The notes beneath the pieces were generated by a model that was not told the DNA's origin, made no database searches, and worked only from the letters and a program-made list of their open reading frames with translations. From positions 7,586 through 71,585 of the forward strand of contig NZ_CALUDM010000001.1 in NCBI RefSeq assembly GCF_943914805.1: a stretch of 64,000 nt of DNA. The letters are read 5' to 3'. This stretch comes from an uncultured Acinetobacter sp. (lineage in GTDB: Bacteria > Pseudomonadota > Gammaproteobacteria > Pseudomonadales > Moraxellaceae). The number at the start of each line of letters is the position of its first letter. The stretch's first letter is position 1. A program made the translations under genes and the position numbers. This document shows positions 5,413 to 36,898 of the stretch, one piece after another.

Positions 5413-5500
5413 ATGATCTAGTCAAAAGCTAGATCGACTTTAGTTTTCATCAATACAGCATTCAGCATGCAATAATCCGAAAATAAAAGTTTAAATCGAA

Positions 5501-7437: not shown

Positions 7438-7495
7438 TTCAAAATCACACCATAATATATTTTAAGGCAGATATTTGTTTTAGAACCGTTCTAAT

Positions 7496-7532
7496 AAAAA
7501 AGCCCTAAGATTACGCTTAGGGCTTTTCCATT
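7496..7532 (+). terminator. Rho-independent terminator of the serine hydrolase gene
   Basis: AAAAAGCCCTAAG-attacg-CTTAGGGCTTTTCC: 9-bp GC-containing stem followed by a T-run. Confidence 0.7.
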
Positions 7533-7830
7533 TACGCTGTAATTTCTTATTTTTTCATTGTTGTTTTTTAATTTATTATTTTTATTTTCCGTGCCCATTC
7601 ACGTTTTATTAATACGGTCCATGTTCTTAATTTTTCGCATTTCCTTATGTTTTGTATTGTGACAGATTTATTTTCCAACAAAAGTCGTATTTTTCACCTT
7701 TTCCTGTACGAAATAACCCACATTAGGTAAACAATGAGAGTTTAAATCGAGGCAGACTATTAATATTTTATAAATGACCAGTGTTATAGACTGAAACTTT
7801 GAGTAAACGAAATACAAAATCGTAGCAAAT

Positions 7831-7868
7831 AAAAAAGCCCTGTAGTCTCTCCCAAAACTACAAGGCTT
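7831..7868 (-). terminator. Minus-strand rho-independent terminator about 215 bp downstream of recD
   Basis: Top strand AAAAAAGCCCTGTAGT-ctctcccaaa-ACTACAAGGCT. On the minus-strand RNA the 11-bp stem is perfect with one G.U wobble and is followed by U6. On the plus strand the same position is a C.A mismatch, so it is strand-specific. Confidence 0.6.
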
Positions 7869-8083
7869 AGCGGCTGTAAGTTTCCTCTTATCACTTACAT
7901 CATGTAAGTTCGCAGTCTCTCGACTTTAACTCGTTATTATTATGTGATTTTACTCAACGATCCTTGCTGAGCTCTTTATGGACTCATCATCTCAGAAAGC
8001 CTTGTGAAGCTCTATGCGCTAATATCTCGAATTCATGTAAGCAATTTCGTACATAACGTAAATTAGTTACATTTCATTAACAA

Positions 8084-9847: not shown

Positions 9848-9930
9848 ACAGTTATCCTCAGAGTTATCTACAAGGTTTTAAACATAGTTATCCACATGAT
9901 AACTATATATTAATAAAAGAATAAAGCTAC

Positions 9931-12900: not shown

Positions 12901-13755
12901 TCTAAACTTGGTACCATTAATCTGTTTGTAATGCTCACCGTCCAATAAATAATAAGCTTCTAAAGACTGTAATTGATCCAGTGGAATTTGTTTGAATTGC
13001 TCAACTGCATTTTGAAAAGTTTTAAAATCGGCTGTAGAAAATTGTGGTTCAACAAATTTCGCTGAAGCAAAATTTAAACTTTGTTCAACGGTTGCAACGT
13101 AGTAATCCACACCATGCAATTCACCTGCAAACATCAAACTATCGATGATTTCTTGCGATTGTTTTTGAATCCATTCACGCAGAATGTCATGGATCAATTG
13201 ATGACTATAACTTTTCGCATCATCGGTAATTTCAGCACGTTCAATCTTGCCACTTTCAAATGCAAATTCACGTAAGAGCTTTTGGCTAAAGCTATCCAAA
13301 GTTCCCACAAATAATTCATCTAACTGATCAATCACCAATTTTAGGCGCTCGCAAGCGTAGGCAATGCGTGAGGCAAAAGTTTCTAATAACTTGGAAAATA
13401 ACGGATCAGACTCTTGTTTGGCTTTCGCTAAAACTTCGTGTTCAGTTAATTCACGACAAGCCTCAAAATAACGAGCTGTTTCTTGTAATCGAGAGCGAAT
13501 ACGACTTTTTAATTCAGCTGCAGCTTTACGGGTAAATGTCGTTGCAATGACTTGTTTGGGTAAATATTTTTCTAGGAATATCCGAACCATTAAACTGGAT
13601 AAAGTATAAGTTTTTCCTGTTCCAGCAGACGCTTCAATCCAGTGTAAGCCTAAAAATTGCATATCTGAAATTGGTTGAATAGACACTTTTTTCGTGTTTG
13701 CAATGACTGACGTTTCAACAGTCGTTTGTGGAGAAGTCGCATTATTCATCATCAT
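9931..13755 (-). CDS. recB: Exodeoxyribonuclease V beta subunit RecB (helicase-nuclease)
   Basis: 1274 aa. N-terminal UvrD-like helicase with Walker A IEASAGTGKTYTLSSL. C-terminal PD-(D/E)XK nuclease region (GSIDLVF...DYKSN). 4-bp ATGA overlap with recC. Confidence 0.92.
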   Translation of the reverse strand: MMMNNATSPQTTVETSVIANTKKVSIQPISDMQFLGLHWIEASAGTGKTYTLSSLMVRIFLEKYLPKQVIATTFTRKAAAELKSRIRSRLQETARYFEACRELTEHEVLAKAKQESDPLFSKLLETFASRIAYACERLKLVIDQLDELFVGTLDSFSQKLLREFAFESGKIERAEITDDAKSYSHQLIHDILREWIQKQSQEIIDSLMFAGELHGVDYYVATVEQSLNFASAKFVEPQFSTADFKTFQNAVEQFKQIPLDQLQSLEAYYLLDGEHYKQINGTKFRNGRFNRIFAKSLPHIIQTLQRSGAKHYLSTSLSAAKTDLATLIKVLREEQIFKKAAAENVQTTFYQHPIIRQLLNIYQQIENFEEQLIGTDTFLKYYLAQEVKKRLPQVLQQKGETTFSQQIRTLAEALQGEQGQRFATFVHASYPLILVDEFQDTNQDQDDMLAQIWRHPSRVKNGCMIMVGDRKQAIYGFRGGDMLTFLKAHQDVFGKEGHEYNLIYNHRSVKPLVEVVDALFQRQMDFGEQVRYTPVQAGSRPHPDLIDQSSVNPQPLRWIQLEDKNKEAEQVAWKIRDLLNQGIQGNLYFAEKLGNRALDENDIAILSKNHDGLDKAQSALEFLGIRTNRPSKKSVFESQIAKDVGAVLAAIMHPYDEAKIKRALLSRLLGFQLTQLIELEQHADGLSHYIEQFDQIREMWLNQGFLTAWQYALTQFHVWTKLVEKQSRDNERVVVNLRHLTELLSQHSEQYQGAQNLYHWYLKQLTMPMEREWEMERKLSNEAGVQLMTIHQSKGLEFKVVFLLGADKDFKEMHKTLNFSTVEQLNDSTGQVEIQRVVAVNDSNTLKKEDIAQHDERALAEHHRLWYVALTRASYRVYAMMQDNVGKSTTGLAFWRGHPVTAFQHAGSVQEELLIERPIRLQATKAEIQPPFVAEVFPTQRFYARGKTSFSALAQHLTRQQIQDALAVAEQVVESAEDEIQQVIVEPIADAGEEKVQPIAWIKANFPKGTVAGNFLHEIFEHIDFKDRQYWQLEIHRRFKNDYSSLWSELIAQYQLAFPQQITEDNQKAEYSQKAEETLLQWVSDWLNDVLTTPILDHFELGQLDIHQYLSEFPFYLALSDRVLATKRIHQLFDEYDIHMPEFKEMNSARYLNGSIDLVFFDGQQYHIADYKSNFLGLDQQNYTTQAIQESMSHASYWLQASLYLVALHRYLSVQLENYHIDRDLGGATYLYLRGMNGQAEQGYHYWRPSSEFILRLDAILGYFAEDKMLKNAG

Positions 13756-16700
13756 TCCTCCTCCACAAATTGATACTGATAAATCGGTTGATACAAATCA
13801 TGTGCAAATTGATCGCAGGCATGTTTCAACAATGCCGTAGCATCCTGTTCTTGCAAGATAAATTGCCAATCTCGATGAAAGCGAGTGGCCTCATTATCCT
13901 CCACTGAAAATGCACTAAAACGTGCAGCATCAGCATTCCACTCTTTTAAAATATCGCCCAGATCATCAATAACAATCTGTCCTGATTCATTTTCAAACCA
14001 TTCTAAAGCCTTGTCTTTTTCTGCTAATTTTAATAATAACGCTGCAGGTAAGACCAATGGTTGTGACTGCGCATAAGCATAGGCCTTAAACCATGCCAGC
14101 AAATAGACTTTGGCTTGTTTGGAACTTAATCCTGTACTGATAATGGTGACATCACTGAATAATGCGATACGGCGCAACGCTTTGGACTGAGTATCATCTA
14201 AATCTAAATAACTAAGCCACAATAAATATTCTAGCCACACTTTTGCACGACGCTTCGCACGACCACTGGATGCATCCATACTGACCCAATCATTGACTGT
14301 ATGTAGTGGCACAGTGATGTTAACCACAAACTTATCTTCAATACGCCATTGACGTTGTGTGGTTGCTGTGACTTCAGTTGCATAACGTTTTAAGCGGACA
14401 TTCAAAGCATCTTGTTCAACTAAACTGATTTGCCAAGCGCTGTGTTGAACTTTGCCGATGGGCAATTGATCTTGTAGCTGATTTTGTAACTGGTTTTGTA
14501 GTTGCTCAGTACCATGAATGACCGATTGATCAGCTAGGCTGTCTTTGCCTAAATTCTGCTTTTGTAAAAAATCTCGAATCTGATAACGTGCCAACCCATC
14601 TAAAACCAAAGGTTCAACTTGAGTTGGAATATCTTCCGCACTCAAATTTTCAACCCCTAAAGTTTTCAAATATAACCGTGCAGGGAAAGTCACATCATTA
14701 ATCCATTGCCCTGCGTCTAAAACAGTGACGTCATCTTGCACAACGGGATATGGCACATTTGCCCATGCTTCCCTATGCGATAAGCTGTCGGCTTGGCGGA
14801 TTTGTTGTGCCACTTGATACCATTGATCTTGATAGCGAATATTTTCTGCCGATTCAAAGCCATTTGGGTCAAAAGGTTGTAAGGTATGAATGTGATATAG
14901 AGATTGAATTTGTTCAGGAATTTCAATGCCGTTGAGCTCAACCAAAGTGTCAGTTTGGTTAGATGAAGTTGTTTCAGATTGGCTAATAAAAGCAATATGA
15001 TTCATCAATTCCTGCAACACACTGGATGGATCACGGACTTCACCATCACTCACATCAAAACCATTATAGAACAGCCACAAATTTTCTTGTGCTAAGAGCA
15101 AAGCATCCAAAAATGCCCCTTGATCATCATCTAAACGTGAACGATCACCCAATTGTGGCTTGAGAATTTCCATCAAATCGAAAGGCAAATGTGAACTTCT
15201 ATTTGGAAATTTCCCACCATCTAAATTCATCATCACAATCAATTTATACGGTAATGGGCGAATCAAACCAATTTGGCTAAAGGTAATTTGCCCTGTTGGT
15301 AAAGCCTGATCAATTTGCCCTTCTAAAATGTTTTGGATTTCGGTAAGTAAATACGGTAATGGCAAATGAATATTTTTAAGAATTGGATTTTCTTGTTCAT
15401 CATAAAAACTGGCTAATGTGAGCATACGCTCTTGTTTTTTAACAATTTCACGGACTGATTTTAGTGCTTCAACACCAGCTTGTTCAAATTCAAGAATGTC
15501 CTGCATCAATAATTTTAACCATGTTTCAGCATCTGATTTTAAGCCTGATTCCGTACTTAACTCATGTGCTGTCATCCAATGGCGACGTTCGACAAAATCT
15601 TGATAGATCGCAATGAGTTTACTGATCAGTTCAAAATCACTTGGTAAAACTTGCGCATAACTGAGCGTATTTTCAAACATTGCATGTTCAGGAATCGCCA
15701 CACCCAAAACCAAACGATCTAAAGCAAATTTAAAACTAAAGCGATAGTCTTCATCATCTGCGCTTAAACCCCGTTGCAAATGTGCATCATCTAAACCTCG
15801 CTTAAACCCTGCACTGATCAATAATGCGATCATACGTTGAGTATTTTGAATATTCAGTTCATAACGTAATTGGGTTGCGTTTAAATTCAACCAATCTGCA
15901 AAGTCTTCAATACTCAATCGCCCTTCGACTAACTGAATTCGACCTAAAACGGCACGCCATGCATTGACTGCATCCAGTTGCGTCACCCCTGCAATTTTAA
16001 CAGGTAAATAAACGCCCTCTTGATTAGGCGCATGAGGAAACACACTCCGAATCAGTGGTTCAATTTGCTTTAAATCAGGCACTAAAACCAAAACATCACT
16101 TGGTCGGTGCGGGTTTTCAGCACTACTTTGCGTTAACCAGTGAATCAATTGATCTTTTAATACTTCCAGTTGGCGAAGCGAAGAATGACAAACATGGATT
16201 TGAATTGAGTTATCCTGTGGGTCTAAAACATAGGCATGCGCTTCTGGTTCGACCAAATACAAAATATCAGACTGTAACTTTGATAATAAATCTGTGGGTG
16301 CTTCATCGACAAAAGCATCGACCCATTGCCCTTCTTCCCCAGAAGATAAGTTGGATAAAATGGAGAAATGGTCACGGGCTTGTTTTCCAAAACGGGTCAG
16401 TAATGGATGGCGTGATTCACGAATTTCAGCATTAAAATTTAAGGTAAATTCATCAAAGAATTTTTGAATATCTGCATCGGTCGCTTTGGGATGTTTGGTA
16501 ATAAAACGCTCTTTGACTCTTAGATCATATTGCTTTTTCCAGTTTGGATCGACACTGTCCGCCCAATATTCTTGTGATGGGTTGTAATGTAAAATCACCA
16601 CATCCAAATATTGTCCCAAGCGTCTTAAAAACTGCAATTGGCTCGGTGGTAGATCCAATAAAGTAAAAATAATCAATCGGCTTGGTAATTTCTTTAATGC

Positions 16701-17483
16701 TTTTTGACGACGTTCTGGATCATCCATAACTTGCCAAAAATCAGCATCAATACTTTTCATTTCAATGAAATCTTCATGAAATGTATGTTGCCATAACCAA
16801 CGTTGCCAACGTTCTAATTGCTGTGCTTGATTTAAAGTAAATGCTGAAACTTGTTGATTGGTCTTAAAAAATTGTTGTTCTAAATCCAGTTCCTGACCTT
16901 GCCCCCATTGCCCTAACCAATTGTTTGAACAAGTACAAACATCGCCCTGATTCTGTTGGCAACCACGCAAACAATCACCACGATACTGCATATAGTTACT
17001 GAACAATTTCGATACTTGTTCAGATACCCAATACAACATGCTTTGCTTTTTGAGTTGCTTCTCTAAACCATTTTCAAGCTGTGAAGCTGAATCATAAATA
17101 CGTTGAATAATTGAATAAAGTGGATGATCTTCTGCAAGACTATTTTCAGCCGTTTCGATAAAGCCTTTTAAAGTTTGATAAATTCGCCATTTCATAATCA
17201 AACGTGGAATATTGGCTTTTCGTACTTTGTCTTTATCATCCAAAACTTGTTGATATGCAAACCATTGAAAGCCACGAATGCGTTGATGAAACAGACTATT
17301 GGCACTAATACCTTGTTGTTCTGCAATTTTTTGAGTTAACCATTCCTGAACCGCAGGACTCGGTACAATAAAATGTTGCGTTTGGAGTACAGCAAACGGA
17401 TTCTTGGAAGGCTTGATGGTATTTTGCAATAGACCTTGCACCAATACTTCAATGCTTTGACTTTGAATCACATGAATTGCCAT
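13752..17483 (-). CDS. recC: Exodeoxyribonuclease V gamma subunit RecC
   Basis: 1243 aa, first gene of the operon, overlapping recB start. Size and position match RecC. Confidence 0.85.
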   Translation of the reverse strand: MAIHVIQSQSIEVLVQGLLQNTIKPSKNPFAVLQTQHFIVPSPAVQEWLTQKIAEQQGISANSLFHQRIRGFQWFAYQQVLDDKDKVRKANIPRLIMKWRIYQTLKGFIETAENSLAEDHPLYSIIQRIYDSASQLENGLEKQLKKQSMLYWVSEQVSKLFSNYMQYRGDCLRGCQQNQGDVCTCSNNWLGQWGQGQELDLEQQFFKTNQQVSAFTLNQAQQLERWQRWLWQHTFHEDFIEMKSIDADFWQVMDDPERRQKALKKLPSRLIIFTLLDLPPSQLQFLRRLGQYLDVVILHYNPSQEYWADSVDPNWKKQYDLRVKERFITKHPKATDADIQKFFDEFTLNFNAEIRESRHPLLTRFGKQARDHFSILSNLSSGEEGQWVDAFVDEAPTDLLSKLQSDILYLVEPEAHAYVLDPQDNSIQIHVCHSSLRQLEVLKDQLIHWLTQSSAENPHRPSDVLVLVPDLKQIEPLIRSVFPHAPNQEGVYLPVKIAGVTQLDAVNAWRAVLGRIQLVEGRLSIEDFADWLNLNATQLRYELNIQNTQRMIALLISAGFKRGLDDAHLQRGLSADDEDYRFSFKFALDRLVLGVAIPEHAMFENTLSYAQVLPSDFELISKLIAIYQDFVERRHWMTAHELSTESGLKSDAETWLKLLMQDILEFEQAGVEALKSVREIVKKQERMLTLASFYDEQENPILKNIHLPLPYLLTEIQNILEGQIDQALPTGQITFSQIGLIRPLPYKLIVMMNLDGGKFPNRSSHLPFDLMEILKPQLGDRSRLDDDQGAFLDALLLAQENLWLFYNGFDVSDGEVRDPSSVLQELMNHIAFISQSETTSSNQTDTLVELNGIEIPEQIQSLYHIHTLQPFDPNGFESAENIRYQDQWYQVAQQIRQADSLSHREAWANVPYPVVQDDVTVLDAGQWINDVTFPARLYLKTLGVENLSAEDIPTQVEPLVLDGLARYQIRDFLQKQNLGKDSLADQSVIHGTEQLQNQLQNQLQDQLPIGKVQHSAWQISLVEQDALNVRLKRYATEVTATTQRQWRIEDKFVVNITVPLHTVNDWVSMDASSGRAKRRAKVWLEYLLWLSYLDLDDTQSKALRRIALFSDVTIISTGLSSKQAKVYLLAWFKAYAYAQSQPLVLPAALLLKLAEKDKALEWFENESGQIVIDDLGDILKEWNADAARFSAFSVEDNEATRFHRDWQFILQEQDATALLKHACDQFAHDLYQPIYQYQFVEEE

Positions 17484-22072: not shown

Positions 22073-22741
22073 ATGTGGTCGATTCTGGCACTCGGTGCAG
22101 TTGAACGATTAATCAATCAATTCATAAACTTGGATGCGATTACTCGCATCCAATTAAATACATTGCAATCTCAAATGCTGCGTGTGGTGATAGATACGCC
22201 ACAACTTTCTGTTGATGTTTATTTTGATGAAAATAAAGTTCGCCTAGAACCCACTGTGACAGGTCATAGTGAAGCTACATCAATTTTTGAACAACGCCCA
22301 TTTGATCAAAAAGTTGCCATATCAGAAGCAACCGCAACACTGCATGTAAAGAATGTAGTTGAATTATTAAAGTTATTATTGTCTGATGATGTCGGCAATA
22401 TTCCCTTGCAAGGCGATTATCATCTCTTACAAGATGTTCAACGAATCATCCAACAGGCTGAGCCTGATTTGGCATCACATTTAAGTCCGTGGATTGGACC
22501 CGCACTTGCCCATGAAATTGCAAAAATTCAATTGGCACCCAAACATTTAAAACGCTCATTACAAAGCCATTTATTTTTTGCTGAAGATTTTTTTAAAGAA
22601 GATAGCGGTTTATTTGCACCTCGTTGGCAAATGGATGATCTTCAACAAGATACTCGCCAGCTCAACCAAAATATTGACCGTCTAGAAGCCAAAATTAAAC
22701 AGCTTCAAATGGCTTTCACTCCTACACAATTTGGTGATTGA
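22073..22741 (+). CDS. ubiJ: Ubiquinone biosynthesis accessory factor UbiJ (SCP2 domain)
   Basis: 222 aa between ubiE and ubiB. N-terminal SCP2-like region LALGAVERLINQFINLD. Confidence 0.75.
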   Translation: MWSILALGAVERLINQFINLDAITRIQLNTLQSQMLRVVIDTPQLSVDVYFDENKVRLEPTVTGHSEATSIFEQRPFDQKVAISEATATLHVKNVVELLKLLLSDDVGNIPLQGDYHLLQDVQRIIQQAEPDLASHLSPWIGPALAHEIAKIQLAPKHLKRSLQSHLFFAEDFFKEDSGLFAPRWQMDDLQQDTRQLNQNIDRLEAKIKQLQMAFTPTQFGD

Positions 22742-22745
22742 TTTT

Positions 22746-24365
22746 ATGATTCCGCACATTACCCGTTTATTCGAACTTTGGCGCATCGCCGCGCACTATA
22801 GACTCGACACACTGGTTCCTGCGGATGAACTCCCAGAAAAAGCAAAGCATGCTTTGGCTTTGATTCGTCTACACCCTGCTGCTTGGTCGAGCAGAGAACG
22901 TAAAAATCCATTGAAGCTGAAACTGGCTTTAGAAGAAATGGGGCCTTTGGCGATTAAACTTGGGCAGTTACTATCAACTCGCCGTGATCTGATTTCACCT
23001 GACATTTTACAACAATTGGTGTTATTACAAGATCGTGTCAAACCCTTTGATTCAAAGGTGGCTAAAGCTCGAATTGAAGAATCATTAAAAGCCAACGTTA
23101 GCACTTTATTTGCTCGTTTTGATGATCAACCTCTAGCAGCAGCATCCATTGCACAGGTTCACACAGCAGCCTTGCATGATGGTCGAGAAGTGGTTGTGAA
23201 AGTCACTCGTCCTGATATTCGTAGTCAAATTTTAGAAGATTTTGAAATTTTGACATGGCTTGGTGCAAATCTTGAGAAACGTTTAGAAGCTGCCCGTGCC
23301 GTGCATTTATCTGAAATTATTCAGAACTATCGTCAAGTCATTTTAAATGAGTTGGATTTGACTTTAGAAGCTGATAACACTCGCCGTATGCGTCATTACT
23401 TTACAGGTTCAAGCATGATGTATGTGCCTGAAGTGTACATGGACAGTAAAGACGTCATGGTGGCTGAGCGAATTACTGGCGTTCCAATTTCAGATATTGA
23501 AACCTTTGAAAGACTTGGTATGGATCGAAAAGATCTTGCTGAAAAAGGTTTAACCATCTTCTTTACCCAAGTGTTCCGTGACAATTTTTTCCATGCAGAT
23601 ATGCACCCCGGAAATGTGTTTGTTGAAACGCTGAACCCAACTCACCCACGTTATATTGCACTGGATTGTGCAATTATGGGGGAATTGTCTAAGCAAGATC
23701 AGATGACTGTTGCTCGCATGCTGCTTGCAGTAATGAACAGTGACTTCATGCAATTGATTCAGATTGTGCATCAAGCAGGCTGGATCCCACCGGGAACAGA
23801 TCAAGATGCTTTAGCCCGTGAAATGCGTCGTACTGTTGGGCCAATGGTCTCTAAACCAATGCATGAATTGGACTTCGCAGGGATTCTACTGCAAGTCATG
23901 GATATTGCTCGTCGCTTCCATTTAGAAATTCCACCACAGCTAATGTTATTGCTTAAAACATTGGTGCATGTGGAAGGTTTAGGTACAGACTTGTACCCTG
24001 AATTGGATATTTGGAGTTTGGCAAAGCCAATCCTGACCGAATGGGTTAAAGCACAAATGAATCCGCAGAAAAACTTAAAAGAATTGGGACAAAAAATTCC
24101 TGATTTACTTTTAGGTGCGCAGGATTTTCCAACTTTGATTGTAGACAGTTTAAATGGTCTAAAAAATCAGTCTGCATGGCATGCCAAACAGCTCCATGAA
24201 TTACAAATGATGCGTTTAGAAGTTGAACATCAACAAAAGCGTAGTTGGATTTTCGGCAGTATCATGGCGATTTTCCTATCGATTGCGATTATTGCGCCGT
24301 GGTATGTTTCGATTGTTCTGATTGTATTCGCTGGTATTTTAGCGCTTTGGCGGATTGCAAAGTAA
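22746..24365 (+). CDS. ubiB: Ubiquinone biosynthesis regulatory protein kinase-like UbiB
   Basis: ABC1/UbiB kinase-like motifs (AAASIAQVHTA, HADMHPGNVF) and C-terminal TM helices. ATG at 22746 (MIPHITRLFELWRI) lies 4 bp after the ubiJ stop; the track ORF opens earlier with TTG. Confidence 0.9.
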   Translation: MIPHITRLFELWRIAAHYRLDTLVPADELPEKAKHALALIRLHPAAWSSRERKNPLKLKLALEEMGPLAIKLGQLLSTRRDLISPDILQQLVLLQDRVKPFDSKVAKARIEESLKANVSTLFARFDDQPLAAASIAQVHTAALHDGREVVVKVTRPDIRSQILEDFEILTWLGANLEKRLEAARAVHLSEIIQNYRQVILNELDLTLEADNTRRMRHYFTGSSMMYVPEVYMDSKDVMVAERITGVPISDIETFERLGMDRKDLAEKGLTIFFTQVFRDNFFHADMHPGNVFVETLNPTHPRYIALDCAIMGELSKQDQMTVARMLLAVMNSDFMQLIQIVHQAGWIPPGTDQDALAREMRRTVGPMVSKPMHELDFAGILLQVMDIARRFHLEIPPQLMLLLKTLVHVEGLGTDLYPELDIWSLAKPILTEWVKAQMNPQKNLKELGQKIPDLLLGAQDFPTLIVDSLNGLKNQSAWHAKQLHELQMMRLEVEHQQKRSWIFGSIMAIFLSIAIIAPWYVSIVLIVFAGILALWRIAK

Positions 24366-27416: not shown

Positions 27417-28202
27417 ATGAACAATCTGCAATGGCTCGATGAAGTAAAATTTAACGAACAAGGACTTATTCCTGCTATTGCACAGCATCATCAAACAGGA
27501 CGTATTTTGATGGTGGCATGGATGAACCGTGAAGCACTACAACTCACTGCTGAAAAAAATCGTGGTGTCTATTTCTCTCGCTCACGCAATAAACTTTGGT
27601 TTAAAGGCGAAGAATCTGGTCATTTTCAAACTGTTTATGAAATTCGTTTGGACTGCGATGCAGATGTTATCGTATTACAAATTGAACAACAGGGCGGAAT
27701 TGCGTGCCATACAGGACGTGAGTCTTGCTTCTATCGTAAGCTTACGCCAAATGGTTGGGAAATTGTTGATGCACAACTCAAAGACCCTGCTTCTATTTAT
27801 GCTGAAAAAGCATCTGCAAACCCACATACTATGGCTATGAATGCATCAAATGCTCAAGCTGAACAAGTTGAAGTGCTCGATTATTTAGGTAAGATGATGG
27901 CGCAACGTAAGTCAGCAGATGCAGACTCTTCTTATGTGGCGACACTTTACCAAAAGGGTTTGAATAAAATCTTAGAAAAAATTGGTGAAGAAAGTGTTGA
28001 AACTATCATTGCGGCTAAAGATTTTAAATTAGCTGCCAATGAAGACAATAAAAACGATTTAATCTATGAAGTGGCTGATTTGTGGTTCCATACCATTGTT
28101 ATGCTCGGTTATTTCGATCTAGATATTCAGTTGGTATTGAATGAATTGGCACGTCGCCAAGGACTTTCAGGACTTGTTGAAAAAGCTAAACGTAGTCATT
28201 AA
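27417..28202 (+). CDS. hisI: Bifunctional phosphoribosyl-AMP cyclohydrolase / phosphoribosyl-ATP pyrophosphatase HisIE
   Basis: HisI core ([13 protein letters not shown]...[11 protein letters not shown]...[11 protein letters not shown]) followed by HisE MazG-like region (ATLYQKG...[13 protein letters not shown]). Confidence 0.9.
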
Positions 28203-28242: not shown

Positions 28243-28297
28243 AAAAAAAGAGGGACTAAGCATATAAAATGATTTTATATGCTTAGTCCCTCTTTCC
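28243..28297. terminator. Bidirectional terminator, 21-bp perfect stem, between hisIE (+) and phoX (-)
   Basis: AAAAAAA-GAGGGACTAAGCATATAAAAT-g-ATTTTATATGCTTAGTCCCTC-TTTCCC. A-run upstream and T-rich downstream, so functional on both strands. Confidence 0.8.
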
Positions 28298-28375: not shown

Positions 28376-30376
28376 TTAAACAGGCTTCTTCTCTACAGAA
28401 GGCGCAATCGGATCAGCCGTTAAATAACCTACAGCCGCTGCATAGCGATCTTTATAATTAGCACGGATCAATGGATCTAAAGTCGCTTGAACTTTACTGT
28501 GCAAAGAACCCCAATCCCCCGGATGCTGGAAATTACTCATAATATACGTCCAACCATTGATTGAATCGACCGCATGTAAACCTGTAGATTCTGCACCTGC
28601 TGGACAAGAAAGAATTCGATCTAACTTTTTAGTATCAACGTTATATGCCCATAAATAATTATTCACATGGTTACCACTGTCTTCACCAATGAATAAAGTA
28701 CGGAATGTCTCAGAGAATTTTAAATTATCCGCACTGGCAATCGTGTTTGGATCAGCTGTATTACCAATCCCCAATGGATCTGTTGCAGCATCGATATCTT
28801 TACCAATCAAAAGCATATGTGATTGATATGGCACCCAGTCACTGATAATTGGGCTACCTGATTTATCATTTTTAGCACCTGCAAGATCATGCGCAACGAT
28901 ACCACCTGCTGAAATTTTCTTCGCAAATGTGACATTGTTGCTTTCTGTCCAAGCGGCATTGCCTTTAATCATAGAGTCTTGAATATTGGCTAAAGCAGAA
29001 TAGGCAACTTTGTCTTTGGCATTGACCGTTGTACCTTCCATCTTGGTAAATGCCATACTTGCGCCCATCAAGGCTGCATAGCGATGTGTTTCCAAGAATG
29101 CTGCTGCTTTTTCCATGCCTGGTTTAACTTTGACCCATATGCTTTTCTTCTGCAGAATGATCTTGGTGAAACTCGCATCTTGCGGATCTTTATCCAAACT
29201 TTCCATGATATCGGTCGGTTGAATATTTTTAACATTCACCAAATCTTCAATTTCTTGACTCGTAGCATGCCCCAATTTAATCCATTGAATTTGTGCCGTT
29301 GAGGTCTCATTCAATTCATTTAAATACTTGGCAACATACAATGTTCCTGCAGATAAATCTTTTTCTTTATCAGCAACAAACATGAACAAACCACCATTGG
29401 TATAGTCATCGCCCATTAACGCTGTACGGTTATCAGGCATGACTTGAATCAATTCATGTGAAATACGACCTAAACAATAATGCTTTTTCACAGAACCTGT
29501 GCCGTCTTTGTTAACAGTGATCTCAGGTAAATGCCCATAGTTATAGGCTTTTGCCGAAGTTTCATCACCATACACATTTTTACTGTAGGCTTTCATGGTT
29601 GCCATATCAGTACCTAAGCCTTGTGCAAATGCATCTGGCTCATATTCTTCACTCGAAAGATGTGTTCCCCACGGCGATAAACTTGCGCCACAAGTAATCC
29701 ATAAACCATGTGCCTTAGACATATCAACATTGTGGTATTTCACTAAGCTTAAATGCCCTGTTTTTGGATCTTGATCTAGCGAAATAATGGCAATAGGCGA
29801 TGGTAATTTACCGTACATATCATTGCCAGCTAAATCACGGCTGGTATATTCAAATTGCACAACTGCAAAGACTGGATTGCCTTTTACACCATCAACTTTG
29901 GCATCTTTCACGGTCAATAATGATGTCCCATCTGGACAGTCTGAAAAGAACTGACGTTCTTGACCTGCGACAGATTTATCCATAATCGCTTTATTATTAA
30001 TATCATAATAACCGCCTGCCAAAATTTTACCGCCCTTCCCATCACTGACCATATCACCCGTTTGGAAGAAGGTTTTATACGCAAGTTTATATTCAGTCTT
30101 GGTATTATCATCCCAAGTCACAGCTAAACCCGAAGCAACAGTCGTTGTTGCCATCGCTGCTGCATTTGCCAATGTTGGCGCATCCATTGGGGTAAATGTC
30201 GCTGATTTTAATTTAGCTGGATTTACTGGTGGCGTAACGACTGTATCGTTGTTGTTGTCATCGTTACATCCTGCAAGTGTTGCAGAAGTCGCCATTGCCC
30301 CAAGTGGAAGAAAAGGTACGCTGGCTAACCATTTGAGAATTTCACGACGTGTGTGCTGGTTGGCTGAGTTTGTCAT
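28376..30376 (-). CDS. Tat-secreted alkaline phosphatase PhoX family (DUF839)
   Basis: N-terminal twin-arginine-like signal (HTRREILKWLASVPFLPLGAMATSATLAGC, possible lipobox). Internal CGASLSPWGTHLSSEEYEPD matches the conserved PhoX SPWGT...EE active-site region. 666 aa. Confidence 0.55.
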   Translation of the reverse strand: MTNSANQHTRREILKWLASVPFLPLGAMATSATLAGCNDDNNNDTVVTPPVNPAKLKSATFTPMDAPTLANAAAMATTTVASGLAVTWDDNTKTEYKLAYKTFFQTGDMVSDGKGGKILAGGYYDINNKAIMDKSVAGQERQFFSDCPDGTSLLTVKDAKVDGVKGNPVFAVVQFEYTSRDLAGNDMYGKLPSPIAIISLDQDPKTGHLSLVKYHNVDMSKAHGLWITCGASLSPWGTHLSSEEYEPDAFAQGLGTDMATMKAYSKNVYGDETSAKAYNYGHLPEITVNKDGTGSVKKHYCLGRISHELIQVMPDNRTALMGDDYTNGGLFMFVADKEKDLSAGTLYVAKYLNELNETSTAQIQWIKLGHATSQEIEDLVNVKNIQPTDIMESLDKDPQDASFTKIILQKKSIWVKVKPGMEKAAAFLETHRYAALMGASMAFTKMEGTTVNAKDKVAYSALANIQDSMIKGNAAWTESNNVTFAKKISAGGIVAHDLAGAKNDKSGSPIISDWVPYQSHMLLIGKDIDAATDPLGIGNTADPNTIASADNLKFSETFRTLFIGEDSGNHVNNYLWAYNVDTKKLDRILSCPAGAESTGLHAVDSINGWTYIMSNFQHPGDWGSLHSKVQATLDPLIRANYKDRYAAAVGYLTADPIAPSVEKKPV

Positions 30377-30450: not shown

Positions 30451-30637
30451 TTTTAAGTCAATTTAAAGACAAAAACTTAAAAACTCATATTGTGATAAAA
30501 ATTATAGGGATAGCTCTTTGTGGATTCTCATAAAGATGCTCCGAGCAATATCCCACTAGAATTACCCCTTGTATTGAGGAAATTTTGCTATACTCAGCGC
30601 TGTATTAAATTCTCAACTTATAAGACTTCATAACCCT

Positions 30638-32131
30638 GTGCCTTATTCTTTTACACCAACTACAGAACAAAGTTTTGCAATTGCAGAAGCAAAAAAGGGA
30701 CAATCCTTTAAAGTGATTGCCTATGCTGGCACAGGTAAAACCACGACTTTACAGTTGATTAGCGATGCAATGCCGAATCGACGTGGTATGTATTTGGCTT
30801 TTAATAAGGCAATTGCCACTGAAGCACAGAATAAATTTCATAATAATGTCGATTGTCGAACCTTCCATTCATTAGCATTTAGAAGTGTGCCACGTGGTGT
30901 AACTGATAAATTACGTTTACCTCGTTTAAGTCCAAGTTTTATTGCTAAAGAATATCGTCTTGAGCCGATTACCCTGCGACGCTTAATGGGTGGTCGTTAT
31001 GAAAAATATATCTTGATGCCAAGTCGCTTAGCCAGTTTAGTGGCAAATGCTGTCAGTTATTATTGTTCAACCAGTTCGCAATACCCTGCGCCACGTCATA
31101 TACAAGCGCCAAGTTGGTTACATCCTGACGATGTGGAATCCTTACAAAAACACCTTTATCCTGCGGTAGAAAAGCGTTGGTTGGAATCGATTGATCCAAA
31201 TCACCAAGCAGGTATTGGTCACGATATTTATTTAAAATTATGGGCATTATCAGACCCTTATATTCCTGCGGATTATGTCCTATTCGATGAGGCACAGGAT
31301 GCTGACCCATTGATGTTGGGCATTTTACTGCGCCAACGTAGCACTCAAGTGATCTATGTCGGTGATGCACATCAACAGATTTACGCATGGCGTGGTGCGG
31401 TCAATGCTATGCAAAAAATGCCTTTACCTGAATCACGTTTAACCACGTCTTTCCGCTTTGGTGATGCGATTGCAGATGTTGCCAATCACTTACTCGGCGC
31501 TTTAGATGAAACTGTGCCATTATTAGGCAATCCCGACATGAAATCTAGTGTGGTCAATAAGCCACATACCAAAATGCGTGATGCAATTTTATGTCGTACT
31601 AATGCACGTGCCATGGAGTTACTACTTTCAGGTTTAGTACAAGGTGATAAAGTCAGCTTGCAAGCCGATCATGTCAAATTAAATCGTTTTGTCGATGCAG
31701 CAAGTTTGCTTAAACAAGGTAAACGTGTCACAGATGTGCCTGAGTTGGCTTGGTTTAATTCTTGGCATGATGTCCATGAGTATTGTGAAACCAATGATGG
31801 TAGTGATATCAAACCTTTAGTAAAACTGGTCGATGATCATGGCACTGAACCGCTTAAAAAAGCACTTGCTAAAATTACACCAATAGAGCAAGCTGATTAT
31901 GTGATCTCAACTGCACATAAAGCCAAAGGTTTAGAATGGAACCGTGTTCATATTGAAGATGACTACCAATTTAAGATCAATGGTCTTGAGCATAAAATCA
32001 GTGATGAAGAATTAAGGCTGCTATATGTTGCTTGTACTCGAGCAAAAGTTAGTTTAAATATTCATCATATTTATGATTTAGTACAACAACTTAAACAAAA
32101 AGTGCCATTCAAAAATAAAGCAACTGCATAA
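30638..32131 (+). CDS. Compact SF1A UvrD/PcrA-like DNA helicase (AAA_19 + UvrD_C-like, about 500 aa)
   Basis: GTG start. Walker A VIAYAGTGKTTTL. Motif Ia RTFHSLAF, II VLFDEAQDADP, III YVGDAHQQIYAWRGA, IV SFRFGDAIA, V/VI ISTAHKAKGLEWNRVHI. Lacks long 2B/accessory insertions. Putative TATACT -10 about 45 bp upstream. Confidence 0.85.
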   Translation: MPYSFTPTTEQSFAIAEAKKGQSFKVIAYAGTGKTTTLQLISDAMPNRRGMYLAFNKAIATEAQNKFHNNVDCRTFHSLAFRSVPRGVTDKLRLPRLSPSFIAKEYRLEPITLRRLMGGRYEKYILMPSRLASLVANAVSYYCSTSSQYPAPRHIQAPSWLHPDDVESLQKHLYPAVEKRWLESIDPNHQAGIGHDIYLKLWALSDPYIPADYVLFDEAQDADPLMLGILLRQRSTQVIYVGDAHQQIYAWRGAVNAMQKMPLPESRLTTSFRFGDAIADVANHLLGALDETVPLLGNPDMKSSVVNKPHTKMRDAILCRTNARAMELLLSGLVQGDKVSLQADHVKLNRFVDAASLLKQGKRVTDVPELAWFNSWHDVHEYCETNDGSDIKPLVKLVDDHGTEPLKKALAKITPIEQADYVISTAHKAKGLEWNRVHIEDDYQFKINGLEHKISDEELRLLYVACTRAKVSLNIHHIYDLVQQLKQKVPFKNKATA

Positions 32132-32161
32132 CACTGTAGTTTTTTTCTTTACAGGTGTCCT

Positions 32162-33532
32162 ATGAAACTACAAAGCATTCATTTTCGACATATTTATCAT
32201 TTTTCCGATTTAAAAATAAATTTTAAACATTCAAAAAAACCGATTACCGTCATTATTGGTGATCAAGCTTCAGGTAAAACAGCGATTATTAAAAATATTT
32301 ACCAAGCTTTAACATGGTTTCCTGCACGTTATAAAGACCTGCGCACACCGGGCGTGGTCATGCTTGATCAAGACATTATGATGGATCGGGTACAAGCAAA
32401 AATCGATGTGCAAATACATGTTCCTACTGAATTCGGCTCATTACCTGAAAGTGACGGTGCGACTGAAACAGATACACAAAGTTGTCGTTGGCAGTTATTT
32501 AAAACACTGAATGCCAATGGTGTCGGTATCAGTAAAGTTGAATTGGAACAATTAGAACAAGCGGTCACTTTGTATAATCAGGTCATAAAAAAAGACCCTG
32601 TTCAAGGGCTTCCATTACTTGCTTATTACCCTGCTGAACGTTTTGTCAATGAAGTCAATATTCTCAGTAAAAACAACCCACTGGTTTTACAGCAATATAA
32701 TGCATACGAATTAGTTGCTATTCCCTACACTACTTTTGCACGTTTTTTTGAGTGGTTTAGAGAAATTAGTGATATTGAAAATGCACAAACGGCGCAACTT
32801 TTTCAAAATATTCTGAGACATAAAGATACATCAAATAAATCAACTCAAGATTTTCAAAATACCTTATTCCAAGCACATTCTCAGCTACATGCACCTAGCC
32901 TGCAGGCATTAAAAAGCACACTTAAAACAGTGATTCCTGAAATCACAGATATCTTTTTAGAATATCAACCTAAATTACAATTGATGGTCACCTATAAAAA
33001 CCAAACCATGTCCTATCAACAATTGTCCAATACAGTCAAAAACTGGATTGGTTTAGTCGGTGATTTGGTACGTCGTCTGTGTTTACTGAACCCTTTAAGT
33101 CTATATCCATGTTTAGAGGGTGATGGTGTTCTGCTCATTGACCAAATTGATGTAGATTTAGATCAATATTCGATTCAAGTGATCTTAGATCGATTACACC
33201 AAGCCTTTCCATTGCTACAAATCATTGTTACAGGTAGCCATGAAGAGTTACTTGAACAAGCAGATGAATACCAATGTTTCCATTTAAAAAATAAACAATT
33301 ACATGAAATACAGCCCAATTCTGCATGGCAAGAATATCAACATATTTATGAAAATTTACTCAAAGAAACAACTGATCATTCAGAGCATGAATTATTAGAA
33401 CCGAATAACGACTCACTCAATGCACAGCAACTCTATGAACAGTTTCAATCTTTAACGGAAGAACAGCAAATTGAGTTAAAACGATTAATCCAAGCAGGTG
33501 ATGATTTATCACCACATACATCTTTGCTTTAA
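32162..33532 (+). CDS. ABC-type (SMC/RecF/OLD-like, AAA_21/AAA_15 class) ATPase without recognisable nuclease domain
   Basis: AGGTG RBS 30 bp after the helicase stop. N-terminal Walker A IIGDQASGKTAI (aa 31-42). About 290-aa inserted helical region. Walker B/D-loop VLLIDQIDVDLD and H-loop QIIVTGSHEELL near aa 320-350. C-terminal 100 aa helical, with no TOPRIM/HNH/PLD motifs. Confidence 0.75.
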   Translation: MKLQSIHFRHIYHFSDLKINFKHSKKPITVIIGDQASGKTAIIKNIYQALTWFPARYKDLRTPGVVMLDQDIMMDRVQAKIDVQIHVPTEFGSLPESDGATETDTQSCRWQLFKTLNANGVGISKVELEQLEQAVTLYNQVIKKDPVQGLPLLAYYPAERFVNEVNILSKNNPLVLQQYNAYELVAIPYTTFARFFEWFREISDIENAQTAQLFQNILRHKDTSNKSTQDFQNTLFQAHSQLHAPSLQALKSTLKTVIPEITDIFLEYQPKLQLMVTYKNQTMSYQQLSNTVKNWIGLVGDLVRRLCLLNPLSLYPCLEGDGVLLIDQIDVDLDQYSIQVILDRLHQAFPLLQIIVTGSHEELLEQADEYQCFHLKNKQLHEIQPNSAWQEYQHIYENLLKETTDHSEHELLEPNNDSLNAQQLYEQFQSLTEEQQIELKRLIQAGDDLSPHTSLL

Positions 33533-33924: not shown

Positions 33925-33950
33925 CAAGTTGCGCAACACAACTTGTTTTT
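33925..33950 (+). terminator. Terminator-like hairpin CAAGTTG-cgcaaca-CAACTTG + TTTTT about 105 bp upstream of mrpA
   Basis: 7-bp perfect stem followed by T5. Lies inside the 522-bp AT-rich spacer between the ATPase gene and mrpA. Confidence 0.45.
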
Positions 33951-34054: not shown

Positions 34055-36898
34055 ATGACAATGGATACGCGTGTGCTTCCGATTATTGTATTGTTACCAT
34101 TAATACTTGGCACAACCCTTGTCCTGTGGCTGAAGCAATTCTCTCGCGGGTTAACAGCTTTAGGAGCAATAGGGGTTAGTCTAAGCAGTTTTATTCTGTT
34201 ACTGACTCAAGCTAAATCAGTATTCAATGGTCAGGCTGTTTTAGAACATTGGCAATGGTTACCTCAAATTGGTATCGATTTCAGCTTTCGCCTCGATGCG
34301 CTCAGTCTTATTTTTGCCTTATTAATCAGTGGAATTGGTACGCTGATCTATATTTATGCCTATTATTATTTAAATCCAAAAAACTCTCTCAGCAAACTCT
34401 ATGCATTGCTCATGATGTTTATGACAGCAATGTTGGGAATCTCGCTGTCTAATAATTTAATTATTCTGTTGGTGTTTTGGGAGCTGACCAGTATTTCATC
34501 ATTCTTATTGGTGGGTTATTGGAGTAATTACGATGCCGCACAACGTGGCTCTCGTATGGCGCTGACCGTCACAGGAATGGGTGGTTTGGCAATGCTCGGT
34601 GGTTTCGTCTTATTGGGACAAATCACAGGGACATATCAAATCGACCAACTCACCACCATGGCAGCAACTATTCAGCATAGTCCGTTATTTGTTCCTGCTT
34701 TATTGCTGATTCTATTGGGTGCATTTACTAAAAGTGCGCAATTTCCGTTTCACTTTTGGCTACCCAATGCCATGGCAGCACCAACGCCTGTATCTGCATA
34801 TTTGCACTCAGCAACGATGGTTAAAGCAGGTATTTTCCTACTAGCACGCTTATTACCAATATTTGTCGGTTCAGCGCTATATCACAATATCGTTACAACC
34901 ATTGGTTTATTTACCTTATGTATGGCGGCATTTTTTGCCATATTCAAAGAAGACCTCAAAGGTCTGTTGGCATATTCAACGATTAGCCATTTAGGTTTAA
35001 TCATGTGTTTATTGGGCATCGGTTCACCGCTTGCTGTAGCCGCAGCCATTTTCCATATCATTAACCATGCGACATTTAAAGCTGCCTTATTCATGATTGC
35101 AGGTATCATCGACCATGAGTCTGGTACACGTGATTTAAGAAAGCTCAGTGGGTTATGGCAATTGCTTCCTTTTACAGCGACACTCGCTATGATTACCGCA
35201 GCAAGTATGGCAGGTGTACCACTGACCAATGGTTTCTTGTCCAAAGAAATGTTCTTTACTGAGTTAGTGGCGAATTTGTCTGGCGCCTATGTTGTCGTAG
35301 CGGCAATTATTGCGACATTGGCAGGTTTATTTGCTGTCGCTTATTCAGTACGCCTTGTACATGGGGTATTTTTTGATGGCCCTGTTGGCAAAGATGTTCC
35401 AAATAAAGATGCACATGAACCATCATTAGGTATGCGCGCACCTGCCATTTTGTTGGCAACATTGTGTATTTTGGTCGGTATCCTACCTGCTTTATTGGTT
35501 CAAAATATTATCAATGCAGGCACACGTGCCAGTACACAACTCGCAAACTTTGAAGGTGTTCATTTAGCTATCTGGCATGGCTTTAATTTACCTTTAGTGA
35601 TGAGTGCAATTGCGCTTTTCGGTGGTATTACCTTCTATTTTGCCTTAGCCAAAGATAATCGTATTCGCCAAATTGATCTTGACCCGATGATTGGCAAATT
35701 CCAAGGCAAATTAATTTTTGAAAATTTCCTCAAAGATTTATTATTATTCTCACGAAAAATTAAATTAAGAACTGAAACGGGTTCATTACAAAACTACTTA
35801 TTGTGGATCGTCGTATTCAGTATTGCTTTGGTTGCAACACCATTACTCAATCAAAACTTAACCACTGGCACACGTGAATTAACTCATGCCCCGTTGGTTG
35901 CAATCGTACTTTGGCTCTTACTCTTCTCAGCCTGTTGGATGATGTTATGGTTTCACCATGAACGCATTAAAGCCGTGCTGATCAGTGGTGCTGTTGGTTT
36001 AGTGGTCACTATGATTTTTGTCACGCTGTCTGCGCCTGATTTAGCATTGACTCAAATCACGGTGGATGTGGTGACAACGGTTCTGTTATTGATGAGTTTA
36101 TCGTTATTGCCACAACTGACACCGTATGAATCTAGCCAAACACGTCGTTGGCGAGATGCCATCATCGCCATTGGTGGTGGTTTAGGCATCGGTTGGATTG
36201 CTTGGTTAATTATGACTCGTGATCACAACTCAATTTCATGGTTCTTTGTACAACAGTCCTTACCACTGGGTGGTGGCTCGAATATTGTCAATGTCATCCT
36301 TGTGGATTTCCGTGGATTTGATACCTTCGGTGAAATCACGGTATTGGGTATTGCTGCAATTGGTGCGCTTTGTTTAATGGATGGTATGCGTACGCATGGC
36401 ACGACCATTACCCAAGGTTTAAGTTATCGCTTTAACCCTTCACCACTCATGTTTCGTATGACAGCTTCGTGGGTATTACCAATCGCATTGGTGGTCAGCC
36501 TCTATATTTTCCTCCGTGGTCATAATTATCCAGGTGGTGGTTTTATTGCAGGTTTAATTACCTCACTGGCATTGGTCATTCAATATATTGCACTTGGGCA
36601 AGACCAAGCAGAAAACATGCTTAAAGCCAAATCAGGTCGCTTATACGAAATTTGGATCGGGATTGGTTTAATAATCGCAGGATTGACGGGCATTGCTGCA
36701 TGGCTTTGGGATCGACCATTCCTCACCAGTGCGCATGTTTATGTTGAATCAGGAATTTTCGGGAAATTCCACTTTGCTTCTGCGGCAGCATTTGATCTTG
36801 GTGTGTATGGCACAGTGGTTGGTGCAACCATGTTGTTAATTTCTGTACTGGGCGACTCTCGACATTCGAGTATGTCTGGTCCTGTACCTAAGGAGTAA
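34055..36898 (+). CDS. mrpA: Multisubunit Na+/H+ antiporter subunit MrpA fused to MrpB (PhaAB-type)
   Basis: 947 aa polytopic membrane protein. NuoL/MrpA-like N-terminal antiporter core plus C-terminal MrpB-like extension. First gene of a 6-gene mrp cluster. Confidence 0.85.
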   Translation: MTMDTRVLPIIVLLPLILGTTLVLWLKQFSRGLTALGAIGVSLSSFILLLTQAKSVFNGQAVLEHWQWLPQIGIDFSFRLDALSLIFALLISGIGTLIYIYAYYYLNPKNSLSKLYALLMMFMTAMLGISLSNNLIILLVFWELTSISSFLLVGYWSNYDAAQRGSRMALTVTGMGGLAMLGGFVLLGQITGTYQIDQLTTMAATIQHSPLFVPALLLILLGAFTKSAQFPFHFWLPNAMAAPTPVSAYLHSATMVKAGIFLLARLLPIFVGSALYHNIVTTIGLFTLCMAAFFAIFKEDLKGLLAYSTISHLGLIMCLLGIGSPLAVAAAIFHIINHATFKAALFMIAGIIDHESGTRDLRKLSGLWQLLPFTATLAMITAASMAGVPLTNGFLSKEMFFTELVANLSGAYVVVAAIIATLAGLFAVAYSVRLVHGVFFDGPVGKDVPNKDAHEPSLGMRAPAILLATLCILVGILPALLVQNIINAGTRASTQLANFEGVHLAIWHGFNLPLVMSAIALFGGITFYFALAKDNRIRQIDLDPMIGKFQGKLIFENFLKDLLLFSRKIKLRTETGSLQNYLLWIVVFSIALVATPLLNQNLTTGTRELTHAPLVAIVLWLLLFSACWMMLWFHHERIKAVLISGAVGLVVTMIFVTLSAPDLALTQITVDVVTTVLLLMSLSLLPQLTPYESSQTRRWRDAIIAIGGGLGIGWIAWLIMTRDHNSISWFFVQQSLPLGGGSNIVNVILVDFRGFDTFGEITVLGIAAIGALCLMDGMRTHGTTITQGLSYRFNPSPLMFRMTASWVLPIALVVSLYIFLRGHNYPGGGFIAGLITSLALVIQYIALGQDQAENMLKAKSGRLYEIWIGIGLIIAGLTGIAAWLWDRPFLTSAHVYVESGIFGKFHFASAAAFDLGVYGTVVGATMLLISVLGDSRHSSMSGPVPKE

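Follow-up and report, generated by a model that had tools for sequence, protein, structure and literature searches.

A PtuA-family ABC ATPase without PtuB, maintained behind an FBH1-like helicase at a core locus of Acinetobacter

We have analysed two adjacent, co-directional genes in a 64,000-nucleotide stretch of chromosome from an uncultured Acinetobacter sp. (contig NZ_CALUDM010000001.1, positions 7,586 to 71,585), which is called the window throughout and whose numbering is used for all coordinates unless a different locus is named. The first gene (30638-32131, + strand; GTG start, 497 aa) encodes a compact FBH1-like SF1A DNA helicase of the UvrD superfamily, and the second (32162-33532, + strand; ATG start, 456 aa) encodes a homolog of the Septu-type ABC ATPase PtuA that is not accompanied by PtuB. 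The pair constitutes a core, syntenic chromosomal locus in which the helicase, a core gene of the Moraxellaceae, is older than the ATPase. The ATPase itself is a PtuA-family protein that is maintained by selection even though its catalytic and partner-docking features are degenerate. We consider it probable, with moderate confidence, that the ATPase is a domesticated scaffold derived from PtuA that binds ATP but hydrolyses it poorly and that is co-transcribed with a genome-maintenance helicase at a fixed locus. Both protein families are known, but a genus-wide, vertically inherited PtuA lineage that lacks PtuB, is catalytically degenerate and stands behind an FBH1-like helicase appears to be undescribed in the literature that we searched, where we found nothing specific on Acinetobacter PtuA or on bacterial FBH1-like helicases.

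The pair was brought to attention by a reading of the DNA letters alone (the original prediction), which proposed a nuclease-less helicase and ATPase module with a role in defence or genome maintenance. The two open reading frames (ORFs) of 497 and 456 aa, the GTG start of the first, the gap of 30 bp and the AGGTG ribosome-binding site are present as it described them, and the pair does lack a nuclease and matches no canonical defence architecture. A role in genome maintenance or as an accessory to recombination likewise stays a live alternative to defence. To place the pair in a wider context we scanned one genome per GTDB species for relatives of the helicase, which yielded 490. The locus counts given below are derived from the best 80 of these 490, all of them from Acinetobacter, and 79 of the 80 are informative for the ATPase, the remaining locus being truncated just past the helicase.

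The ATPase belongs to the PtuA family

Profile hidden Markov model (HMM) scans assign the ATPase to a known family, PtuA, yet detect no nuclease domain. Pfam returns only generic AAA_23, SMC_N and AAA_21 matches and no TOPRIM domain, and the PADLOC model PDLC00271 (PtuA) matches residues 1-426 with E=4.8e-56; over 20 other PtuA models match as well. The PADLOC retron ATPase_I-A model also matches, at 6.7e-46, and against the NCBIfam equivalog for retron Ec78 PtuA the protein scores 158 bits where the cut-off is 500. The best sequence matches in the PDB are the PtuA proteins of retrons Ec83 and Ec78 (E=1e-23) and then E. coli Septu PtuA. An AlphaFold2 model of the ATPase (pLDDT 82.5, pTM 0.77) gave the same answer when compared with the PDB by Foldseek, as the top 50 matches are all PtuA with E values of 1e-20 to 8e-26. 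Neither the full-length PtuA HMM match nor these 50 structural matches reveal a nuclease fold or domain in the ATPase. The prediction that the protein carries no nuclease domain was therefore correct, and the cryptic nuclease or GajA-like protein that it had suggested might emerge from a structural search is not found among the top models.

Among the closest known systems is the PtuA of Septu (E. coli PtuAB; PDB 8EE4, 8EEA and 8SUX), which has the same fold (Foldseek E about 5e-23) with an ABC head and a helical insertion. It has the motifs FFEWFRE..EN and GD..RR..LNP in common with our ATPase, and the N-terminal retron extension is missing from both. The hallmark motif TTFARFFEWFREISDIENA (residues 190-208; 32729-32785, + strand) is highly conserved and common to canonical PtuA. 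The closest PDB matches, at 1e-23 by sequence and 8e-26 by fold, are PtuA proteins of type I-A retrons (Ec78/Eco7 and Ec83), but the locus has no reverse transcriptase (RT), noncoding RNA or PtuB, and the ATPase lacks the RT-contacting N-terminal extension of about 60 aa, its alignment beginning at approximately residue 60 of retron PtuA. A retron context was rejected since there is no RT ORF and the spacers around the pair gave no match to Rfam families such as retron noncoding RNA.

Decay of the catalytic site and of the PtuB-docking tail

Where canonical PtuA reads LSQGEK...LIDE[I/V]D.HLHP...TTHSP, the ATPase of the window reads LSNTVK...LIDQIDVDLDQ...TGSHE. The ATP-binding core is retained, as Q35, G38 and K39 of Walker A (GDQASGKT, residues 33-40; 32258-32281, + strand) and D327, L333 and D334 of the Walker B and D-loop segment (VLLIDQIDVDLD, residues 323-334; 33128-33163, + strand) are invariant in 77 orthologs. 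The residues expected to act in catalysis have been replaced. At position 328, that of the catalytic Glu, the 77 orthologs have Gln in 50, Ala in 10, His in 9, Asn in 4, Glu in 3 and Asp in 1, so that 73 of them carry Q, A, H or N. The signature motif has degenerated to LSNTVK (residues 288-293; 33023-33040, + strand) from a canonical LSxG[E/Q]K, with Ser or Thr at the Gly position in 76 of the 77. In the H-loop region QIIVTGSH (residues 353-360; 33218-33241, + strand), for which the canonical sequence is Q..V.TTHSP, position 360 is Arg in 60 orthologs, His in 11, Gln in 4 and Ser in 2. The original prediction had recognised all three ATP-site segments, GDQASGKT, LLIDQIDVDLD (residues 324-334) and IIVTGSH (residues 354-360), but its labels need adjustment. 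The Walker A lysine is K39 and not K40, the segment called a D-loop does contain the D-loop residues but its LLIDQID part is a Walker B with Gln in place of the catalytic Glu, and the His of the segment called an H-loop is shifted by one residue from its canonical position, where most orthologs have Arg.

Relatives of the ATPase at 35-46% identity form a graded series between the canonical and the degenerate state. Three of them (P0256, P0257 and P0252) keep LSQ and the D-E pair but have lost the H-loop His and HLHP, and other clusters in this range carry D-D, D-A or D-Q. These intermediates share the hisIE-helicase-ATPase context.

The C-terminal extension (residues 385-456; 33314-33529, + strand) has decayed as well. 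This helical, acidic, fast-evolving region is the least conserved part of the protein, and the model shows it as three helices with linkers of low confidence between them. Both the YG.DAN.VLL motif and the terminal basic helix have disappeared from it and, from canonical PtuA to the Acinetobacter clade, its content of K+R falls from 13% to 5% and its net charge from -2.5 to -12. In Septu, two PtuA C-terminal extensions together form the docking site of PtuB, with a basic groove that takes up the acidic tail of PtuB (PMC12819146, PMC13376987). At the very end of our ATPase (residues 437-456; 33470-33529), 67 of the 77 orthologs keep a short EQQxxLxxL helix and, after it, a semi-conserved acidic tip (DD[T/Q][S/T]…L), which may be a docking peptide that replaces the PtuB-binding surface.

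No PtuB was detected in the window or in 83 related loci, either with a profile or by tblastn, under conditions where three positive controls scored E<1e-80. The profile was built from PtuB proteins of three outgroup contexts, in which the nearest ATPase relatives outside the clade, at 23-27% identity, reside in canonical Septu arrangements with PtuB. The relative on Zymomonas pZMOB02 has an overlapping gene annotated as a retron system putative HNH endonuclease, that on a Paraburkholderia plasmid has an overlapping 216-aa HNH ORF, and that on an Enterobacter plasmid has an overlapping 211-aa ORF inside a type I restriction-modification island. A PtuB remnant in the 522-bp spacer downstream of the ATPase gene or elsewhere in the window was also considered and rejected, there being no ORF in that spacer and no profile or tblastn match. 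Relative to Septu PtuA, the window protein thus differs in the absence of a PtuB/HNH partner, in the decay of the docking extension and in the replacement of catalytic Glu, H-loop His and signature Gly.

These losses raise the question of whether the gene is a non-functional relic that has been decaying since PtuB was lost, which would fit with the missing catalytic and C-terminal motifs and with the loss of the entire gene in several individual lineages. Such decay is very improbable and a pseudogene was rejected, as the ORF is intact in all 77 orthologs (450-478 aa) and its median pairwise dN/dS (the ratio of nonsynonymous to synonymous substitution rates; NG86, on MAFFT --retree 2 alignments) is 0.061, similar to the 0.051 of HisIE. 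Furthermore, 67 residues are invariant across the 77 orthologs, among them those of Walker A, the Walker B Asp and the D-loop; the PtuA core motif is retained; and the AlphaFold2 model folds confidently. Loss of the catalytic Glu predicts poor hydrolysis, and when the catalytic losses are taken together with the retained ATP-binding core and purifying selection, the ATPase is most likely a scaffold that binds ATP but hydrolyses it poorly. Such behaviour has a precedent in stand-alone Septu PtuA, where ATP is bound for assembly and is not hydrolysed (PMC12819146, PMC13376987). By the same comparison the ATPase would be expected to oligomerise like PtuA.

The helicase is FBH1-like and under extreme constraint

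The best sequence match of the helicase in the PDB is the helicase domain of the eukaryotic F-box DNA helicase 1 (FBH1; E=3.9e-42), human FBH1 being the nearest relative of known structure, with residues 20-473 aligned to residues 384-858 of FBH1, a near full-length homology. GajB is matched at 2.5e-4, and GajB, UvrD and Rep reach only about 1e-4. A comparison of folds also puts FBH1 first (E=3.3e-27, template modelling (TM) score 0.67-0.69, 27% identity), with PcrA/UvrD at 1e-13 and GajB at rank 32 with a TM score of 0.34. SF1A motifs Q, I, Ia, II, III, IV, V and VI are intact and invariant across 80 orthologs, including Walker A AYAGTGKTTTL (residues 28-38; 30719-30751, + strand) and motif II VLFDEAQDADP (residues 214-224; 31277-31309, + strand), and all of the helicase motifs quoted by the original prediction are found. 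The F-box, PIP and APIM regions of FBH1 are absent from the bacterial protein, which begins about 20 aa before the helicase core.

Selection on the helicase is extreme. Invariant positions number 329 of 497, and the median dN/dS of 0.012 lies below that of MrpA (0.031), HisIE and the ATPase, so that purifying selection is tighter than on MrpA. Across the genus, helicases are 87-100% identical to their counterpart in the window, MrpA proteins 80-98% and HisIE proteins 75-97%; the ATPase retains only 49-62% outside of its closest clade. The rate at which the ATPase evolves is that of an ordinary gene and shows neither decay nor diversification.

The phage protein family phrog_1967, annotated as a DNA helicase, matches residues 3-484 at 4.3e-102, and further members are located at 4980-6491 of locus L091 and at 3998-5722 of locus L093. 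Compact helicases of this family, annotated on plasmids as UvrD-helicase domain-containing proteins, abound on conjugative plasmids (including IncC) and in lytic phages. Full-length relatives of the window helicase at 30-40% identity occur in 1,895 plasmid records of PLSDB, 1,228 of them conjugative, and in 259 phage records that include Acinetobacter myophages. These relatives ride on mobile elements, whereas the Moraxellaceae copy is fixed beside hisIE and extremely constrained. We read the genomic context in three cases, all of them replication or transfer modules and none with an ABC ATPase beside the helicase. For example, an IncC plasmid relative adjoins a Tus-like protein and tra genes, while that of phage Acibel004 adjoins DNA ligase, thymidylate synthase and DHFR. 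FBH1 unwinds DNA in the 3'-5' direction, reverses replication forks and strips RAD51 (PMC12946210). Its activity, together with the presence of relatives in replication and transfer modules, indicates that the family points to replication and recombination rather than to defence, although a fork-remodelling or anti-recombinase activity of the bacterial protein would be shared by analogy only. An FBH1-like helicase that is this constrained and that is core to the Moraxellaceae, including A. baumannii, could matter for replication-stress tolerance, recombination or natural transformation.

Knowing the families of both proteins also settles the suggestion that the pair could be a degenerate Gabija-like system, in which a GajA-like ATPase of the OLD family with a TOPRIM domain would accompany a GajB-like helicase. 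What is shared with Gabija is the general theme of an ABC ATPase beside a helicase of superfamily 1, the UvrD superfamily, and the helicase does give partial GajB profile matches, confined to motif stretches at E values of about 1e-16 or weaker. Nevertheless, all top matches of the ATPase are PtuA without a TOPRIM domain and with no GajA among the top models, and the helicase belongs to the FBH1-like subfamily, not to that of GajB. Additionally, the genes stand in the opposite order to those of Gabija, the helicase was at the locus before the ATPase and the locus is not mobile. The family assignments of both proteins refute a Gabija or OLD origin, and we accordingly give it next to no credence.

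The pair resides at a core locus and not on an island

The order hisIE-helicase-ATPase-mrpA is kept in 77 of the 79 informative species loci. Viewed from the helicase, the ATPase follows directly 3' in 77 of all 80 loci, the remaining three being the truncated locus and two loci from metagenome-assembled genomes that cleanly lack the ATPase. A single A. baumannii ATPase allele is present on at least 1000 contigs. The variable, horizontally mobile distribution of Septu-type systems is thus not observed, and in contrast to defence-island cargo this PtuA homolog is core chromosomal and vertically inherited. The backbone of the window is ordinary chromosome (recCBD, ubiB, hisIE and mrp), and a mobile island was rejected given that the window contains no tRNA or integrase and that the position is identical in 77 species. 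The original prediction had considered a variable island, against which it set a pair invariant and syntenic across Acinetobacter; the latter is essentially what we find.

Several features that had been taken for signs of an island are real but have other explanations. Of the two flanking genes said to be conserved, mrpA is (34055-36898, + strand; the downstream neighbour in crown Acinetobacter), but phoX (28376-30376, - strand) is a variable insert found between hisIE and the helicase in only 18 of the 80 species loci. The ancestral upstream neighbour is hisIE (PRA-CH/PRA-PH; 27417-28202, + strand), which in 57 species loci is separated from the helicase by 8-28 bp, and the AT-rich upstream spacer of the window is 261 bp long (GC 0.31) because phoX has inserted here. 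The downstream spacer of 522 bp (GC 0.29) is an ordinary mrp leader, which measures 242-500 bp in most species. The ATPase gene is indeed more AT-rich than the helicase gene (GC 0.350 vs 0.396), but the same holds in 68 of 71 species, so that the difference is a persistent one and does not point to recent acquisition. In Acinetobacter, neither low GC nor long AT-rich spacers flanking two genes can be relied on to mark an island. Equally, defence-system scanners should not score this PtuA match as an orphan or partial Septu in Acinetobacter.

The two genes are probably co-transcribed. Their intergenic spacer (32132-32161, + strand) carries the Shine-Dalgarno (SD) sequence AGGTG (32153-32157) four bases 5' of the ATPase start codon. 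Across the 77 orthologous loci the spacer measures 16-43 bp in 70, contains an SD-like motif in 74 and has a T-run in only 7. No terminator was found between the two genes, the sole nearby candidate (32028-32045) being inside the helicase coding sequence and having a poor tail. The spacer can fold into a weak hairpin over the SD (-7.6 kcal/mol), and its sequence is not conserved across species. Upstream of the helicase, a TATACT promoter had been proposed near 30590. This hexamer (30589-30594) has a TG two bases upstream, so that TGcTATACT (30587-30594, + strand) could conceivably serve as an extended -10 promoter of the pair in this species, but there is no -35 element and a sigma-70 consensus scan called no promoter upstream of the helicase.

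The core locus with a helicase of 91% identity also appears in records labelled as A. baumannii plasmids (1.0-4.1 Mb) or as "Acinetobacter phage MD-2021a" (about 220 kb), which are most likely mislabelled chromosomal sequence.

The helicase and the ATPase have separate histories

Beyond the Acinetobacter loci, "Moraxella" sp. ZY210820, Psychrobacter sp. HD31, Alkanindiges sp. WGS2144, a JGI metagenomic lineage and Faucicola boevrei all have the helicase near hisIE but no ATPase, with identities to the window helicase of 59-79%. Because sister genera carry only the helicase at this position, helicase and ATPase must differ in their history, and the original view of the pair as a module by origin does not hold. 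In three deeper metagenomic lineages the ATPase is about 35% identical and hisIE-helicase-ATPase is kept, but the downstream flank differs (dus or a dinB-like gene). A neighbour-joining tree of the helicase, computed without support values, nests the ATPase-less lineages among ATPase carriers. The simplest account is one gain of the ATPase before the split of Acinetobacter and Alkanindiges followed by at least three losses, with the helicase never lost.

The place that the ATPase occupies has received other genes elsewhere. In the JGI lineage and in Faucicola boevrei, the slot 3' of the helicase contains an HATPase_c/DUF4325/PIN cluster in one and an integrase with a Zot-type filamentous prophage in the other (7229-9020 of locus L094 and 6800-8917 of locus L095), where the window has the PtuA-like gene (32162-33532). 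As the cargo differs, this slot behaves as an insertion hotspot, which suggests that it has been a long-lived one in the Moraxellaceae.

Insertion at such a hotspot could mean that the ATPase is a chance neighbour of the helicase, that is, a stand-alone domesticated gene with an unrelated host function that merely shares a transcript, as hisIE may do. An adjacency that dates from one insertion, at a site with other cargo in other lineages, would be expected under this explanation, and so would the fact that at least three lineages have lost the ATPase with no effect on the helicase. It is also noteworthy that hisIE, with a plainly unrelated function, is located 9 bp upstream of the helicase in most species. 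On the other side, the adjacency of helicase and ATPase has outlasted changes of the downstream flank between dus, a dinB-like gene and mrpA, and no other positive evidence separates coupling from coincidence. We consider a chance association unlikely.

The same history bears on whether the pair is a fixed, nuclease-free defence system, in which the ATPase would sense infection or ATP depletion and either the helicase or a host nuclease encoded elsewhere would replace PtuB as effector. The ATPase does descend from a defence family, its protein sequence evolves 3-5 times faster than its neighbours and its tight operonic spacing to the helicase has been retained. Moreover, a tail remodelled to an acidic tip could dock a new partner, and interference with the helicase relatives encoded by Acinetobacter phages is conceivable. 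These considerations are outweighed by the invariance of the locus and by a dN/dS of 0.06 that carries no signal of diversifying selection. They are also difficult to reconcile with a helicase that predates the ATPase, occurs by itself in sister genera, is under tighter constraint than MrpA and belongs to a family of replication modules rather than defence loci. Finally, no effector nuclease was found in the window or the 83 related loci, and the residues equivalent to D359 and Q361, through which ATP is contacted across the PtuA dimer (PMC13376987), are not conserved. A defence role is accordingly improbable in our judgement.

A probable domesticated PtuA scaffold

Our preferred explanation of a domesticated scaffold can be set out as follows. 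The helicase would act on its own as a 3'-5' single-stranded DNA translocase and helicase in the upkeep of replication and recombination, possibly by remodelling forks or by removing recombinase filaments, as judged by analogy with FBH1, UvrD-family enzymes and its phage and plasmid relatives. A Septu system composed of PtuA and PtuB would have landed in the accessory-DNA slot 3' of the helicase before the divergence of Acinetobacter from Alkanindiges. PtuB was presumably lost first, after which PtuA would have undergone stepwise loss of the PtuB-docking tail, the catalytic Glu, the H-loop His and the signature Gly, while purifying selection preserved Walker A, the Walker B Asp, the D-loop and the PtuA-specific core. 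The product may be an oligomeric scaffold that has been put to host use and that possibly modulates the co-transcribed helicase.

A number of points weigh against this explanation. Both the function of the ATPase and its physical or functional link to the helicase are matters that we infer. As the adjacency stems from one ancestral event, its persistence argues only weakly for coupling; hisIE and mrpA share the synteny to the same degree yet clearly have unrelated functions, and several lineages have the helicase but no ATPase. D330 of the ATPase is nearly invariant and could substitute for the catalytic Glu. A PtuB-like or other nuclease may be encoded elsewhere in the genome, as our search covered the 64-kb window and the related loci, and a location in the core genome is by itself compatible with a role in defence. 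The number of losses and the point of gain are also approximate given the unsupported neighbour-joining tree.

A more specific and more tentative proposal is that, throughout Acinetobacter and Alkanindiges, the PtuA-derived ATPase was co-opted as an oligomeric partner that senses ATP, binds DNA and either regulates the helicase or positions it at forks or recombination intermediates, with the acidic C-terminal tip taking the place of the PtuB-docking surface. If true, a bacterial immune module would have been turned into a genome-maintenance factor throughout a genus that includes A. baumannii. Even the broader case of domestication, if correct, would be informative, for the locus and its surviving intermediates would then document the path by which a Septu ATPase shed both nuclease and catalytic residues while remaining under selection for a long time. 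It would also bear on what PtuA-like ABC scaffolds do without an effector.

Other features of the locus

A hairpin, CAAGTTGCGCAACACAACTTG followed by a T-run (33925-33945, + strand), is located in the spacer between the ATPase gene and mrpA. It could be the terminator of the pair or part of the mrp leader or regulatory region, and it is probably the latter, being also kept upstream of mrpA in loci that lack the ATPase. Its conserved form, CAAGTTGCGCAA[C/T]ACAAC[T/C]TG, lies about 110 bp 5' of mrpA and is present in two ATPase-less loci, L063 (at about 3020-3045) and L065 (at about 2405-2430).

Upstream of the pair, a bidirectional terminator with a perfect 20-bp stem (28250-28292, no strand assigned) separates hisIE from phoX. 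The Rfam matches to this palindrome (sau-5971 and MIR families) are sub-threshold only and spurious. In one metagenomic relative (L088), phoX is present as two tandem copies in the opposite orientation. Further upstream, ubiB (22731-24365) is part of the core chromosome, as is the recC-recB-recD operon (8084-17483, - strand), which lies about 13 kb upstream of the pair and has no link to the findings on the helicase and the ATPase.

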